Made by a program: the position numbers and the translations under genes. Below, piece by piece: positions 10,488-58,314 of a stretch of 64,000 bases of DNA. The stretch spans positions 74,430 through 138,429 of the forward strand of contig JBAZJB010000001.1 in NCBI GenBank assembly GCA_041651575.1, given 5' to 3'. How positions within the stretch are numbered: position 1 is the stretch's first letter; each line of letters opens with the position of its first letter. The notes under the pieces were generated by a model that did no database searches, was not told where the DNA came from, and saw only the letters and a list, made by a program, of their open reading frames with translations. Source of the DNA: Candidatus Nanoarchaeia archaeon (GTDB taxonomy: Archaea > Nanobdellota > Nanobdellia > SCGC-AAA011-G17 > JAFCDX01).

Positions 10488-11894
10488 ATGAAAACAACTC
10501 TTATTTTTCCTCCATTTGAGAGAGAAATCAATGATAATCTGCAAATAAGCACAGTTAAGAAATTTGCAGGAGTCCCTGTACCTTTAAGTTTAATGTATAT
10601 TGCCGCTACATTAGAACAAGCAGGTCATGATGTTACCATTCTAGATGCAAATGCTTTGGGTTATACAAAAGACCAAATTATTTCTTATCTTAAAGAAAGA
10701 AAAGTAGAAGTTGTAGGTCTGACTGTAACTACATTAACTTATCATAAAGAAGCGGCATGGATAGAAGCCATAAAAAAAGAACTTCCTGATGTAACAATGA
10801 TTGTTGGAGGAAAACATGCCTGGTATTATTCTAAAGAATTACTAAAAAATAAATATATAGATTATGTTTTTGTTGGAGAAGCAGATAATTCTATTGTAGA
10901 ATTTGCAAATGCTTGGGATAAAGATCAGAAAAAATTAAAAAAAATAAAAGGGGTTTGGTCTAGAAATGGAAATAAAATAATTGATAATGGAATGTCAGAT
11001 CCCATTACAGATTTAGATTCTTTACCTTTCCCTGCAAGACACATGTTACCTTTAGGAAATTATTGTACTTTTATAACTAAAAAACAAAAGTTTTCTACTA
11101 TGATTACAACAAGAGGATGTGTAGGAAGATGTACTTTTTGTGATGGTCATTTAGATAGATATAGGGCAAGAAGTGCAGAAAAAGTTGTACAAGAAATGCA
11201 ATTAGCTTATGATATGGGTGTAAGAGAAATAGAATTGTATGATGACGCATTTACAATAAATAAACAAAGAGCAAGAGATATATGTGAAGGCATCAAAAAA
11301 AGAAAATTAAAATTAAGATGGGATATGAGAACAAGAGTTGATATGGTTGATGAAGAAATATTAAAAATTTTAAAATCTGCAGGATGTTGCAGAATTAATT
11401 ATGGTATTGAATCTGGAGATCAGGGAATTTTAAATTTTATGAAGAAAGATATTACTCTTGAGAAAGTTGAAAAAGCAGTTTTATTAAGTAAAAAATTAGG
11501 ATTTGAAGTTTTTGGTTATTTTATTCTTGGATGTCCTGGAGAAACTGAAGAAACTTTGAAAAAAACAATTGAATTCTCTAGAAAATATCCTTTTGATTAT
11601 GTTCAATTTACAAGAATGGTTCCTCTACCAAGAACAGAGTTGTATAGACAATATATGGAAGAAAAAGGACAGGATTATTGGTTAGAATATACTCAAGGTC
11701 AACATAAAGATGAACAAATTCATTTAGTTGGTACGCAGTTATCTGAAAAAAGAATAGAAGAGGCAGTTAAAAATGCTTATAGGGGATTTTATCTAAGGCC
11801 AAAACAAGTTTTAAAAACTCTTTTACGTACTAGATCCTTTGGTGAATTGAATAAATACATTAGTGCAGGAATTAATTTTGTATTTAAAAAATAA
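10488..11894 (+). CDS. B12-binding domain radical SAM protein
   Basis: B12-binding-like N-terminus (LSLMYIAATLEQAGHDVTILD) and 'TRGCVGRCTFCDG' CxxxCxxC. Confidence 0.65.
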   Translation: MKTTLIFPPFEREINDNLQISTVKKFAGVPVPLSLMYIAATLEQAGHDVTILDANALGYTKDQIISYLKERKVEVVGLTVTTLTYHKEAAWIEAIKKELPDVTMIVGGKHAWYYSKELLKNKYIDYVFVGEADNSIVEFANAWDKDQKKLKKIKGVWSRNGNKIIDNGMSDPITDLDSLPFPARHMLPLGNYCTFITKKQKFSTMITTRGCVGRCTFCDGHLDRYRARSAEKVVQEMQLAYDMGVREIELYDDAFTINKQRARDICEGIKKRKLKLRWDMRTRVDMVDEEILKILKSAGCCRINYGIESGDQGILNFMKKDITLEKVEKAVLLSKKLGFEVFGYFILGCPGETEETLKKTIEFSRKYPFDYVQFTRMVPLPRTELYRQYMEEKGQDYWLEYTQGQHKDEQIHLVGTQLSEKRIEEAVKNAYRGFYLRPKQVLKTLLRTRSFGELNKYISAGINFVFKK

Positions 11895-36227: not shown

Positions 36228-36279
36228 CTGTAGGTAACAACTTATAACCTTTTTAAAAGGGTTTTAAAGGAGTATAAAC

Positions 36280-36415
36280 GCCGAGAGCAGGATTTGAACC
36301 TGCACATCCTTTCGGAAACCAGCTTTCTTGCACAACCTTTCCAGGTTCGCCTTACTTCGAGGTTCGCCTTACTCTATTAGTAATCTGGCGCAATACCAGG
36401 TTATGCGATCTCGGC
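36280..36415 (-). tRNA. Intron-containing type-II tRNA gene (probably tRNA-Ser; pre-tRNA 136 nt, intron position unresolved)
   Basis: Minus-strand 7-bp acceptor stem GCCGAGA/TCTCGGC. T-arm GCAGG-TTCAAAT-CCTGC. 3-bp D-stem with 11-nt D-loop (GCA-TAACCTGGTAT-TGC) as in type-II tRNAs. Variable-arm hairpin TCC-GAAA-GGA. Discriminator G. About 50 nt of extra internal sequence. Confidence 0.55.
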
Positions 36416-39509: not shown

Positions 39510-41111
39510 CTAAATTACGCCGAATTGCTTTAAAACTTTTTTTGGATTTCTTGCATATTCATTAATTACTGTTTGAACTTGTTTATAATCAAAAATTTTA
39601 GCTTTGTACATAGCAACTAATAGTTTCGTTCTTAATTGGAATTCTTCTAATAATCTTTCTTTACCAAATCCAAATTCTTCTGTTAATTTTTTAAAAGTAT
39701 AACTATCTGTTTTAAAGAAAAAAGTATCTGTATTAACATCCCATTTAAATGGAATATTAATTTGTGCTTGTCCTGATTCTCCTACAGAAATAATTTCTTG
39801 AATCATTTTTATTCTTCTTACATCTACATTGTTTACTTTTGCATGTCCAATAACACAAACAACATCAAGGGATTCAACTAAAGTTGCAGATAAATTAATT
39901 GGGGGGCTCTCAAGTCTTTTTATCATACTTTCTACATCATTTGCGTGCATTGTACCCATTGATGGATGTCCTGAGCTCATTCCCTGGAATAAAACGAAAG
40001 CTTCTTGTCCTCTAATTTCTCCCACAATTACATAATCTGGTCTTTGTCTGAAAGATTCTTTTAATAAATCAAATAAAGTAACTTCTCCATATTTTTGGCC
40101 AACAATATTTGCTAGACCAATACCTTCTCTAGCTACACTTGGTAACCAGTTTTCATGTTCTAAATTTAATTCTCTAGTATCTTCTATTGAAACAATTCTA
40201 GCTTGAGGTGGGATAAAAAAGGCTAATCCATTTAAGAAAGTTGTTTTACCTGAACCTGTTCCACCAATGACCATAACATTAAATTCGTGTTCAATCAAAA
40301 TCCATAGGTATGCTAAAATTTCTGGGCTTACTGTTCTCATATCAATCATTTTTACAGGGCTCCATGGCTCTTTAGTAAATTTTCTTAAAGTGAAAGTAGG
40401 TCCTTTTGAAGAAATGTCTGTTGTATAAGTTGCATTTACTCTAGATCCATCTGGCAAAGATCCATCTAAAATTGGATTTGAATAAGAAACATATCTTCCT
40501 GCTTTTTGTGCTAATTTTTCTACAAAAGAAATTAAATAAGGAAATTCATTAAATGTAATATTTGATCTTAAATTTCTATATTTTCTATGTACTATATAAA
40601 CTGGACTCTTTATTCCATTACATTCAATATCTTCTATAAAATAATCACATAATAAAGGTTCAATCTCATTCATACCTACAAAATCTCGATAAACATAATA
40701 CATTATTTTTAAAAAAGTATCATTAGAAATTTTTAATCCAAGTTCTTTTAATAAAGTTTTAATATTTCTTTCTAAATATTCAATAACTGCTTCTCCTTTT
40801 TTAATACTAATAAAACTAACATTGATGAATTCTTTTACTCCATTTTCTAATATTTTTAGAACTTCTTTTTCTCTATCATCTAATCTTGGTTCTATTACTT
40901 CATAAATAACATCGCCTTCTTTTGGATCCCAATGTATATGAACAGAAGCATAAGGTTCAATTAAAGGATATTGAATATCAATTTTTTCTTTGTTTGGAAA
41001 ATCAGGTAATACTGGAAGTTTTTCTATACGATTTATTTTGAAAAGAGTCTCTTCTTTTATAGAACTATCTACTTTTTTATCTACCTCTTTTTTTCCAAAT
41101 AACTTAAACAT
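39510..41111 (-). CDS. Type IV pilus assembly ATPase (FlaI/TadA/GspE family)
   Basis: Walker A 'GGTGSGKTT', Asp box, Walker B 'DYVIVGEIRGQEA' and His box 'GHPSMGTMHA'. Confidence 0.8.
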   Translation of the reverse strand: MFKLFGKKEVDKKVDSSIKEETLFKINRIEKLPVLPDFPNKEKIDIQYPLIEPYASVHIHWDPKEGDVIYEVIEPRLDDREKEVLKILENGVKEFINVSFISIKKGEAVIEYLERNIKTLLKELGLKISNDTFLKIMYYVYRDFVGMNEIEPLLCDYFIEDIECNGIKSPVYIVHRKYRNLRSNITFNEFPYLISFVEKLAQKAGRYVSYSNPILDGSLPDGSRVNATYTTDISSKGPTFTLRKFTKEPWSPVKMIDMRTVSPEILAYLWILIEHEFNVMVIGGTGSGKTTFLNGLAFFIPPQARIVSIEDTRELNLEHENWLPSVAREGIGLANIVGQKYGEVTLFDLLKESFRQRPDYVIVGEIRGQEAFVLFQGMSSGHPSMGTMHANDVESMIKRLESPPINLSATLVESLDVVCVIGHAKVNNVDVRRIKMIQEIISVGESGQAQINIPFKWDVNTDTFFFKTDSYTFKKLTEEFGFGKERLLEEFQLRTKLLVAMYKAKIFDYKQVQTVINEYARNPKKVLKQFGVI

Positions 41112-45128: not shown

Positions 45129-45223
45129 AGCCCCGACCGGGAATTGAACCCGGGACCTCTTCCTTACCAAGGAACTGAGCAGTTTTCATCAAACTAGTGC
45201 TCTACCGACTGAGCCATCGGGGC
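45129..45223 (-). tRNA. tRNA-Thr(GGU) with 22-nt non-canonical intron (between positions 27 and 28)
   Basis: Minus strand. Acceptor GCCCCGA/TCGGGGC. D-arm GCTC-AGTCGGTA-GAGC. T-arm CCGGG-TTCAATT-CCCGG. Anticodon arm C|TTCC-TTGGTAA-GGAAG after removing TAGTTTGATGAAAACTGCTCAG, leaving a mature length of 73 nt. Confidence 0.55.
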
Positions 45224-45853
45224 GCTTTTAATAAAATCTACCTTCTCTTTATTTTTTAAAGGTATGTATTTTAATATTTTATAGAAATCCTTTTTATGTA
45301 TATAAATCTGATGGTAAACATGATTATTATACTTCCAAGGGCAAGAATGATAAGAAAATTTAAATTGTTTAAACATATTATCACAAAATTTAGCTAAATA
45401 TTTACTTGCTGTAGAAAGCCCAAAACCACTTCCCTTTTTACCTCCGTCTGTATCTAATAATCCTGTAAGTAATGGGGCATAATACTTTTTTGGTAAATTT
45501 GGAATTTTAGCAATTTTTGCTTTTTTACCGGTGGTAATTCCTTTATTTTTTAAGAATAAGTATATCTTTTTGGATTCTATTGGGCAATTATATAAAATTT
45601 TTCTATCTTTCTTTTTTCTAATTTCTAATCGCGGATTTATATTAAATAATCTAACAAATAGAGGAATGTATACTTCTTTACAGAAATTTAAAGAATTACA
45701 GAAAAAATAAATAAGGTGTCTTTTCTGTATTTTTCCATTTGGTCTTTTTGTAAATGCTTTAGGTAAACTTCCGTCCCCTAAAATTAAACCACAAAAATAA
45801 GCTAAATCATTATTCCATCTTTTTGGTAAAATTATATTTTTATTTATGCTCAT
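45194..45853 (-). CDS. LAGLIDADG-family homing endonuclease-like protein (free-standing)
   Basis: Two LAGLIDADG motifs 'LAYFCGLILGDGSL' and 'LLTGLLDTDGGKK' about 110 aa apart. The last 10 codons read into the tRNA-Thr 5' end, so the true C-terminus is uncertain. Confidence 0.55.
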   Translation of the reverse strand: MSINKNIILPKRWNNDLAYFCGLILGDGSLPKAFTKRPNGKIQKRHLIYFFCNSLNFCKEVYIPLFVRLFNINPRLEIRKKKDRKILYNCPIESKKIYLFLKNKGITTGKKAKIAKIPNLPKKYYAPLLTGLLDTDGGKKGSGFGLSTASKYLAKFCDNMFKQFKFSYHSCPWKYNNHVYHQIYIHKKDFYKILKYIPLKNKEKVDFIKSAPMAQSVEH

Positions 45854-45962
45854 ACCACTATGGTGCTTTTTTTATTTATAAATCTCACGCACACCCGTTT
45901 GCAAGTTGCAATTTGTTGTAATATATATTTTGTAGAATATACTTTTTATAAGAAAAAATAAG

Positions 45963-46046
45963 TGTGGGAGAAGGGATTTGAACCCTCGCAAGCACTAAGC
46001 TACTGGATCTTAAGTCCAGCGCATTTGACCGCTCTGCCACTCCCAC
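45963..46046 (-). tRNA. tRNA-Leu(UAA)
   Basis: Minus strand. GTGGGAG/CTCCCAC acceptor. 3-bp D-stem with 11-nt D-loop. Anticodon arm CTGGA-CTTAAGA-TCCAG. Long variable arm. T-arm GAGGG-TTCAAAT-CCCTT. Discriminator A. Confidence 0.75.
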
Positions 46047-57537: not shown

Positions 57538-58314
57538 ATGTATTCGGAAGAGCAATATAAAAAAGCATTTGATTTGAGAAAAGAAGGTTTTACATATAAT
57601 GAAATAAAAGAAAAACTTAATCTTTTATCACTAAACGCAGCATATGGTTGGATTAAAAAAAGAAATCTACCGCGCGGATCATTTTTAAGTTCTGATGCTA
57701 AAAAATTATCTCCAGAACTGGCTTATATTTTGGGGGTAATTCAAGGTGATGGATATGTTTCTATTAGTAGAACAAAAGGCTGTGCAAAATTAGAAGCAAA
57801 AGACAAAGATTTCGTAAAAAATTTTAAAAATAAATTAAGTAAATGGTCCGGACAAAAATCTTATTTTAATCTAAGAAAAGACAGAAATTTATATACGGCA
57901 ACGCTTAATTCATTAAGGGCATCACAATTTCTTAAAGATTTTAATATTTATAATTTATCTAATACTAAAAAAGATATAAAAATCTCTTTTTTAAGAGGGT
58001 TATTTGATTCAGAGGGGGGAGTATCAGGTTATAATTTAAGCACTCCTAGAACTGCTACGAGATTTATAGCTTTTTATAATACAGATAAAGATTTAATATT
58101 CCTTGTTAAGAATATGTTAGAATCTTTAGGAATAAGAGTTCAAAATATAGATAAAAGGATTAAAAGTGGTTTTTCTACTAATACTCTGCTTTTTAGACTT
58201 AGGATAGGTGGAAAAGAGAATTTAGAAAAGTTTAATAATACTATAAGGTTTTCGATAAAAAGAAAAAATAAAAAACTTGAAGAAGTTTTAAGGAGTTATA
58301 AGAAAAATGTTTAA
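57538..58314 (+). CDS. LAGLIDADG-family homing endonuclease-like protein (free-standing) with N-terminal HTH-like region
   Basis: Motifs 'LAYILGVIQGDGYVS' and 'FLRGLFDSEGGVS' about 90 aa apart. Confidence 0.55.
   Translation: MYSEEQYKKAFDLRKEGFTYNEIKEKLNLLSLNAAYGWIKKRNLPRGSFLSSDAKKLSPELAYILGVIQGDGYVSISRTKGCAKLEAKDKDFVKNFKNKLSKWSGQKSYFNLRKDRNLYTATLNSLRASQFLKDFNIYNLSNTKKDIKISFLRGLFDSEGGVSGYNLSTPRTATRFIAFYNTDKDLIFLVKNMLESLGIRVQNIDKRIKSGFSTNTLLFRLRIGGKENLEKFNNTIRFSIKRKNKKLEEVLRSYKKNV

Follow-up and report, generated by a model that had tools for sequence, protein, structure and literature searches.

Within the 64-kb stretch of DNA analyzed here (the window), positions 45129-45223 very probably carry a functional gene for tRNA-Thr(GGU) that belongs to a DPANN archaeon and contains, between tRNA positions 27 and 28, a 22-nt intron of the bulge-helix-bulge (BHB) type that would be spliced by proteins. 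The complete 95-nt pre-tRNA gene was delimited with the Rfam tRNA model (RF00005) and by reading of the sequence: the model matches at 50 bits (E=1e-7) from 45223 to 45129 on the minus strand and covers 71/71 model positions, with a 35-nt insertion within the anticodon arm. A preliminary description of this DNA had given exactly these coordinates without naming the strand. What it had said of the Thr(GGU) identity, the anticodon, the 22-nt intron at 27/28, the 73-nt mature product and the canonical form of the arms outside the anticodon arm agrees with the cloverleaf fold of the spliced 73-mer, in which all tRNA arms are intact, with the ARAGORN call on that 73-mer and with the BHB geometry.

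Read 5' to 3', the gene runs GCCCCGA UG GCUC AGUCGGUA GAGC A C, then the intron UAGUUUGAUGAAAACUGCUCAG (45175..45196, minus strand), and then UUCC UUGGUAA GGAAG AGGUC CCGGG UUCAAUU CCCGG UCGGGGC U. Exon 1 (45197..45223, minus strand) comprises tRNA positions 1-27, that is, the 5' strand of the acceptor stem, the D arm, A26 and C27; exon 2 (45129..45174, minus strand) comprises positions 28-73, with the remainder of the anticodon arm, the variable loop, the T arm, the 3' strand of the acceptor stem and the discriminator U. The intron falls in the 5' strand of the anticodon stem, the anticodon GGU (45166..45168, minus strand) lies within the loop UUGGUAA, and CCA is not encoded. Once the 22 nt after C27 are removed, the exon junction reads GAGCAC followed directly by UUCCUUGG, and the unconstrained minimum free energy (MFE) fold of the resulting 73-mer is a cloverleaf at -34.8 kcal/mol. 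Inspection found the universal tRNA bases in place (U8, A14, G18G19, U33, A37, U54U55C56, A58 and the G53-C61 pair). The acceptor ends GCC.../...GGC and the discriminator U73 are likewise present and common to all relatives. Archaeal tRNA-Thr carries as identity elements for ThrRS G35 and U36, the pairs G1-C72, C2-G71 and C3-G70, and the discriminator U73; all of these occur in the window gene and in every homologue. ARAGORN, which the preliminary description had proposed as a check, gave a divided answer: the spliced 73-mer was called tRNA-Thr(ggt), and the unspliced gene was called His(atg) with or without intron mode.

The intron carries a relaxed archaeal splice motif of the HBh' type. The central helix H is formed by GAGC, the 3' strand of the D stem at positions 22-25 (45199..45202, minus strand), and GCUC at intron nt 17-20, or pre-tRNA 44-47 (45177..45180, minus strand), with 4/4 pairs; this GCUC and the next two bases repeat the GCUCAG of the D arm. 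The helix is flanked by two 3-nt bulges on opposite strands, A26 C27 ^ U at the 5' splice site (45196..45198, minus strand) and A G ^ U28 at the 3' splice site (45174..45176, minus strand), where ^ marks the predicted cut; in our geometry test each proposed splice site lies after the second bulge base, as in canonical archaeal introns. The intron hairpin h', AGUUU-GAUGA-AAACU at pre-tRNA 29-43 (45181..45195, minus strand), is present in the MFE fold and stacks with its 5 bp directly on H. Removal of the intron restores the cloverleaf, as expected of a BHB intron. The motif departs from the strict hBHBh' form of canonical introns, which classical alpha4/alpha2 EndA takes as substrate, in its 1-bp outer helix h and in its position at 27/28 rather than 37/38, and with an H of 4 bp, an h' of 5 bp and an h of about 0 it has the composition of the relaxed HBh' form, on which broad-specificity EndA acts. 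We assign it to that form because the outer exon helix consists of A21-U29 only in the window gene (0-1 bp in homologues); HBh' is defined as H, one closed bulge and h', with the other bulge unclosed by h (PMC3239211, PMC5829648). The preliminary description had also noted that the 5' part of the insert mimics an Ile(GAU) anticodon arm lacking a 3' partner. The Ile reading is indeed without a 3' stem partner, and the AGUUU of that segment does pair, with the intronic AAACU, as h'.

For the motif to form, the D stem must open, and the conformer with the BHB (-34.5 kcal/mol) is not itself the MFE structure (-38.2 kcal/mol) but costs about 3.7 kcal/mol. Chance is a poor source for such an arrangement: with the junctions held fixed, about 8e-4 of introns that were shuffled or drawn at random with matched composition form a 4-bp H together with an h' of >=3 bp, and about 1e-4 form the 4-bp H with an h' of 5 bp as observed. 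Among the junctions compatible with the sequence, only 27/28 yields a BHB. Mapping of the junctions by ARAGORN on 850 single-deletion variants proved too permissive, with 106 called Thr, and was replaced by the BHB geometry test. Folding at both junctions, which the preliminary description had suggested as a further check, thus came out in its favor, giving an H of 4 bp between two bulges of 3 nt, with the predicted cut after base 2 of each.

The gene and its intron are conserved among relatives. The window sequence is identical to ENA contig k141_1845718, and the gene recurs without change in a second, independently made assembly of this organism (L195; 13,602 nt, 0 mismatches) and in a related 'Candidatus Nanoarchaeia' genome (JAQUOT010000001.1, L063) in which the protein of a neighboring ORF is 92% identical. 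Two pattern scans added at least 6 distinct tRNA-Thr(GGU) genes whose intron, of 15-20 nt, also lies at 27/28; all are from Woesearchaeota-like genomes (L123, equal to L095 and from Woesearchaeota, L128, L162, L168, L175 and L167); homologue counts from these collection scans are lower bounds. All six have H as GAGC/GCUY and bulges AC^N and AR^N, so that H is kept in 7/7 genes with a 27/28 intron. The hairpin h' varies in length from 2 to 5 bp across these genes and shows compensatory changes (AA/UU, AGC/GCU, AGU/ACU, GA/UC and AAGU/ACUU among the homologues). In the alignment of the 27/28 genes 99.4% of cells are paired and 10 pairs have changed on both sides; 0/500 shuffles attained the observed pairing values, and slid registers did not come close either. 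H itself shows no covariation because the D stem fixes its exon strand, and its changes are confined to G-C becoming G-U.

The splice site has moved in other lineages and the central helix has moved with it. A class with the intron at 28/29 (Aenigmatarchaeota, one Promethearchaeota (Asgard) genome and metagenome contigs) has H as AGCG/CGCN, and a class at 29/30 has H as GCGC/GCGW; H thus shifts base for base with the splice site, as BHB recognition predicts. Intron-less tRNA-Thr(GGU) genes in two relatives confirm the exon junction: one in L185, where it follows tRNA-Leu(UAA) at a distance of 7 nt within the shared Leu-Thr...adenylate kinase-pilins-ATPase neighborhood, and a copy in L188. These results indicate that anticodon-stem introns of tRNA-Thr(GGU), at 27/28, 28/29 or 29/30, form a conserved family in Woesearchaeota-like archaea, Aenigmatarchaeota and one Asgard genome, which implies a broad-specificity endonuclease in these lineages.

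The first of the two scans used a pattern anchored on TAGAGC, and about 8 archaeal loci were useful among the matches listed. Ordinary bacterial tRNA-Thr genes that happen to have TAGAGC upstream dominated its output. Canonically interrupted Tyr and Ile tRNAs (L027, L049, L081, L130 and others), which fitted the patterns by chance, were set aside. A distinct set of loci in Clostridia MAGs (L005, L013, L021, L031, L051, L056, L064, L092, L094, L104 and L114) retains the 3' half of tRNA-Thr(GGU), its 5' half replaced by a conserved non-tRNA sequence (ttgctagtattt...TAGAGCA...); these may be attachment-site remnants of integrated elements. In two Woesearchaeota-like contigs the tRNA-Leu(UAA) gene before tRNA-Thr(GGU) is broken by several inserts (L123:6215-6485, L128:880-1061), and an upstream tRNA-Thr(CGU) gene has an insert after the anticodon (L123:6129-6214, L128:1062-1148). 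ARAGORN missed or miscalled these interrupted Leu(UAA) and Thr(CGU) genes.

Could the 95-nt transcript function unspliced, with the hairpin UAGUU-UGAUGAA-AACUG presenting the anticodon and the Thr-like hairpin forming a long variable arm, giving a tRNA-His(AUG) or tRNA-Ile(GAU)? ARAGORN does call tRNA-His(atg) on the raw sequence with the same gene ends, and the MFE fold of the precursor includes the intron hairpin. The loop UGAUGAA, however, has G rather than U at position 33, no known tRNA has both a His anticodon with A34 and a long variable arm, and the Ile(GAU) version is without a 3' stem partner. The homologues speak most directly against both versions. Their hairpins have 2-4 bp and loops of 4-5 nt (GAAA, AAAA, GGAAA, CUUAA) and so cannot be anticodon arms; ARAGORN assigns them differently from gene to gene (unknown, Phe, Ser(act), stop(tta)); and it is the UUGGUAA loop and its stem that are invariant throughout. 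Nor does the intron hairpin show what a class II tRNA with a long variable arm would, a 7-nt anticodon loop with U33 and a conserved arm. An unspliced product, to which we give almost no credence, is effectively refuted by these comparisons.

It is very unlikely, too, that the locus is a tRNA-Thr pseudogene hit by a 22-nt insertion in which the BHB-like pairing is fortuitous. The exact motif geometry is improbable by chance (about 1e-3 to 1e-4), every tRNA arm is intact, the same design is held with compensatory changes in at least 7 diverged genes, and the gene has stayed identical in a relative whose neighboring protein is just 92% identical. A finer question is whether the gene and its product are as described and the cuts fall one base further on, at 28/29 (CU^AG...CAGU^UCC). 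Such cuts are compatible with the sequence because U flanks both junctions, and the mature tRNA would be identical; H would then have 1/4 pairs and there would be no h', against 4/4 pairs and a 5-bp h' at 27/28, and in L123, L128 and L162 only 27/28 fits the sequence. We regard the shifted cuts as extremely improbable and retain the 22-nt intron at 27/28 of tRNA-Thr(GGU).

The surroundings of the gene are archaeal. The window has a GC content of 26%, its genes include those for aTrm56, archaeal type IV pilins and a FlaI-like ATPase, and NCBI lists its proteins under 'Candidatus Nanoarchaeia archaeon', which identifies the host as a DPANN archaeon. DPANN archaea are a group known for such non-canonical introns. 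In relatives, tRNA-Leu(UAA) and tRNA-Thr(GGU) form a conserved pair 7-60 nt apart. In the window a LAGLIDADG ORF has been inserted between tRNA-Leu(UAA) (45962-46046) and tRNA-Thr; this 219-aa ORF with two LAGLIDADG motifs (45194-45853, minus strand; Pfam LAGLIDADG_3, E=9e-10) reads through tRNA-Thr exon 1 and ends at a UAG stop codon supplied by the first three intron bases. The 3' end of the ORF is also found upstream of the identical tRNA-Thr in JAQUOT01, where L063 spans only 64 nt.

A second free-standing LAGLIDADG_3 ORF (258 aa, E=5e-17; 57538-58311, plus strand) directly follows the gene for the gamma subunit of pyruvate:ferredoxin oxidoreductase. In the close relative JAQUOT01 (L189:4269-7418, 1049 aa) and in L193 (4110-7442, 1110 aa) the FlaI-like ATPase contains an intein, that of L193 with a LAGLIDADG domain; the window copy (39510-41111, 533 aa) is intein-free.

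From established knowledge of archaeal tRNA splicing we infer the order of cleavage, ligation and refolding. The intronic GCUC, as a copy of the 5' strand of the D stem, would displace that strand and pair with GAGC 22-25 to form the 4-bp H, while the 5' segment of the intron would fold into the 5-bp hairpin stacked on H. The bulges AC^U and AG^U, 3 nt each, would thereby become exposed, and the archaeal splicing endonuclease (EndA) would cleave each after its second base. An RtcB-type ligase with Archease would join C27 to U28, and the D stem would then form along with the anticodon stem CUUCC/GGAAG of 5 bp.

None of the 68 ORFs of the 64-kb window is EndA, and neither RtcB nor Archease lies within it; genes for RtcB and Archease occur in related contigs. 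In three of these they stand just downstream of the same pilus/ATPase operon (L184:9089-12157, L185:15568-19017, L188:15102-18041), where the window has none. The preliminary description had named the heteromeric EndA as an example of the enzyme required and had taken the intron to be informative of lineage. The intron is consistent with a DPANN host and does not identify the type of enzyme. In a survey with Woesearchaeota and Pacearchaeota genomes among its sample, several DPANN lineages are reported to have an alpha4 EndA with an L3 loop and not heterotetramers, and the DPANN lineages sampled to have many disrupted tRNA genes (PMC5829648). For this host a heteromeric EndA is accordingly a possibility and not an expectation, published work favoring the alpha4 form with the L3 loop.

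Another tRNA gene of the window has an architecture of greater potential importance than the tRNA-Thr intron. The third tRNA gene of the window, 9 kb from tRNA-Thr, is a class II tRNA-Ser gene of 137 nt (36279-36415, minus strand; Rfam 38.8 bits) that ARAGORN missed. Exon 1 (36385-36415, minus strand) comprises positions 1-30. It is followed by two 7-nt anticodon cassettes, CCUCGAA with the anticodon CGA (36356-36362, minus strand) and CCUGGAA with the anticodon GGA (36339-36345, minus strand), then by a 14-nt second intron at 37/38 that both cassettes share (36325-36338, minus strand) and by exon 3, AGCUGG and the remainder of the tRNA (36279-36324, minus strand). A single 5' splice site at 30/31 (H strand CGCC, bulge AG^A) faces two tandem acceptors, ...AGUAAGGCGAA^C CUCGAA and ...GUAAGGCGAA^C CUGGAA, which arise from a direct repeat, so that acceptor and cassette together read GGCGAA^C-CUCGAA and GGCGAA^C-CUGGAA. 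Use of cassette 1 would give an 84-nt tRNA-Ser(CGA) and use of cassette 2 an 84-nt tRNA-Ser(GGA); both sequences fold into perfect cloverleaves, and ARAGORN agrees with both assignments. The two first-step BHB conformers are nearly isoenergetic, at -44.6 and -45.5 kcal/mol in the window and at -59.7 and -60.4 kcal/mol in the homologue L181.

The dual-cassette design is kept in three diverged lineages, with homologues in JAQUOT01 (L189:10480-10618), L181 (5713-5858) and L192 (1186-1353); the ATPase of L181 is 70% identical and an ORF neighboring the gene in L192 is 47% identical. Both cassettes are conserved, whereas sequence divergence is seen in the introns, the spacers, the acceptor stem and the variable arm; the stems show compensatory changes. 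Position 37 is A in both cassettes or, in L181, G in both. A plain tRNA-Ser(GGA) gene without introns occupies the corresponding site (10526-10608) in the outgroup L193, a more distant relative. In the L192 gene a further intron of ~39 nt interrupts the T loop near 59/60 (L192:~1300-1340), giving that gene three interruptions along with the duplicated cassette. The tRNA-Ser gene was found in 1/6 contigs read by synteny through the ATPase, and the small ORF beside it is a better handle for homologue searches than the ATPase. A scan of viral contigs yielded no further tRNA-Ser homologues and only a pentapeptide-repeat false positive.

The central helix of the second tRNA-Ser intron has 2-3/4 pairs, and a mismatch opposite base 34 is unavoidable. 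In all lineages the core of this intron (AGGUUGUGC, CAGGUUAUGC or CAGGUUAUA) complements the D arm GCAUAACCUG(G), in the window between 36325-36338 and 36398-36406 and likewise in L181 and L192. The core is also complementary to the cassette sequence AACCUG, and in MFE folds it pairs with the D arm; it may hold the D arm open for the first BHB. Taken together, the layout of the gene suggests that it yields two isoacceptors by alternative cis-splicing that chooses the anticodon. Whether Ser(CGA) and Ser(GGA) are both really produced, through mutually exclusive 7-nt exons, is a prediction from sequence that we hold tentatively, at slightly less than an even chance. Splicing of tRNA-Thr appears to depend on the opening and re-closing of the D stem by way of the GCUCAG copy, and tRNA-Ser appears to use the same logic for choice. 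The Thr intron may be one part of a lineage-wide set of alternative pre-tRNA folds programmed by intronic copies or complements of tRNA arms.

Non-canonical BHB introns of tRNAs are well documented in archaea, for example at 20/21, 22/23, 25/26, 29/30 and 30/31 (PMC4090602), and biochemical tests exist for relaxed HBh' substrates (PMC5829648, PMC3239211). The introns of Thermoproteales, Nanoarchaeum equitans and ARMAN-2 (PMC4090602, PMC3239211) resemble the Thr intron in being short and outside 37/38, in having a 4-bp helix and 3-nt bulges, often in a relaxed HBh' or hBH form, and in that their removal restores the cloverleaf. The Thr intron differs from them in its Woesearchaeota-like DPANN host, in building H from the whole 3' strand of the D stem and an intronic GCUCAG copy, and in its position, 27/28, which is absent from the list in PMC4090602 and which we did not find named in the literature searched. 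The D-loop intron of Methanopyrus kandleri pre-tRNA-Glu(UUC) is likewise of the relaxed HBh' type and interrupts the 5' half of its tRNA outside the canonical site, and it is cut efficiently only by broad-specificity EndA (PMC5829648); the tRNA, position and lineage differ, and the M. kandleri tRNA also has a canonical intron, whereas tRNA-Thr has a single intron. With canonical hBHBh' introns at 37/38 the Thr intron shares the 3-4-3 geometry, the cut after the second bulge base and, presumably, the enzymes; unlike them it is without the outer h, lies in the anticodon stem and requires the D arm to refold. The ectopic introns of nucleomorphs and red algae, in the D arm and anticodon stem (PMC4090602, PMC3728597), are also short and some are BHB-like, but their hosts are eukaryotes and the window, with its aTrm56 and pilins, is archaeal.

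Because introns of this kind are already known, the tRNA-Thr finding is correct but ordinary. It leaves the known working of such introns unchanged, and its use lies mainly in annotation of DPANN tRNA sets. ARAGORN miscalls the window gene and every homologue as His, Phe, Ser, a stop suppressor or unknown, and DPANN inventories will therefore under-count tRNA-Thr(GGU) unless non-canonical BHB introns are modeled. For the tRNA-Ser gene, we found no report of alternative or mutually exclusive cis tRNA splicing in the literature searched, and if confirmed it would be the first case found of alternative cis-splicing that selects a tRNA anticodon. The closest known system is the tri-split tRNA-Gly of Caldivirga maquilingensis, in which alternative anticodon-loop transcripts are spliced in trans (PMC4390854, PMC4033280); the dual-cassette tRNA-Ser would be its cis counterpart.
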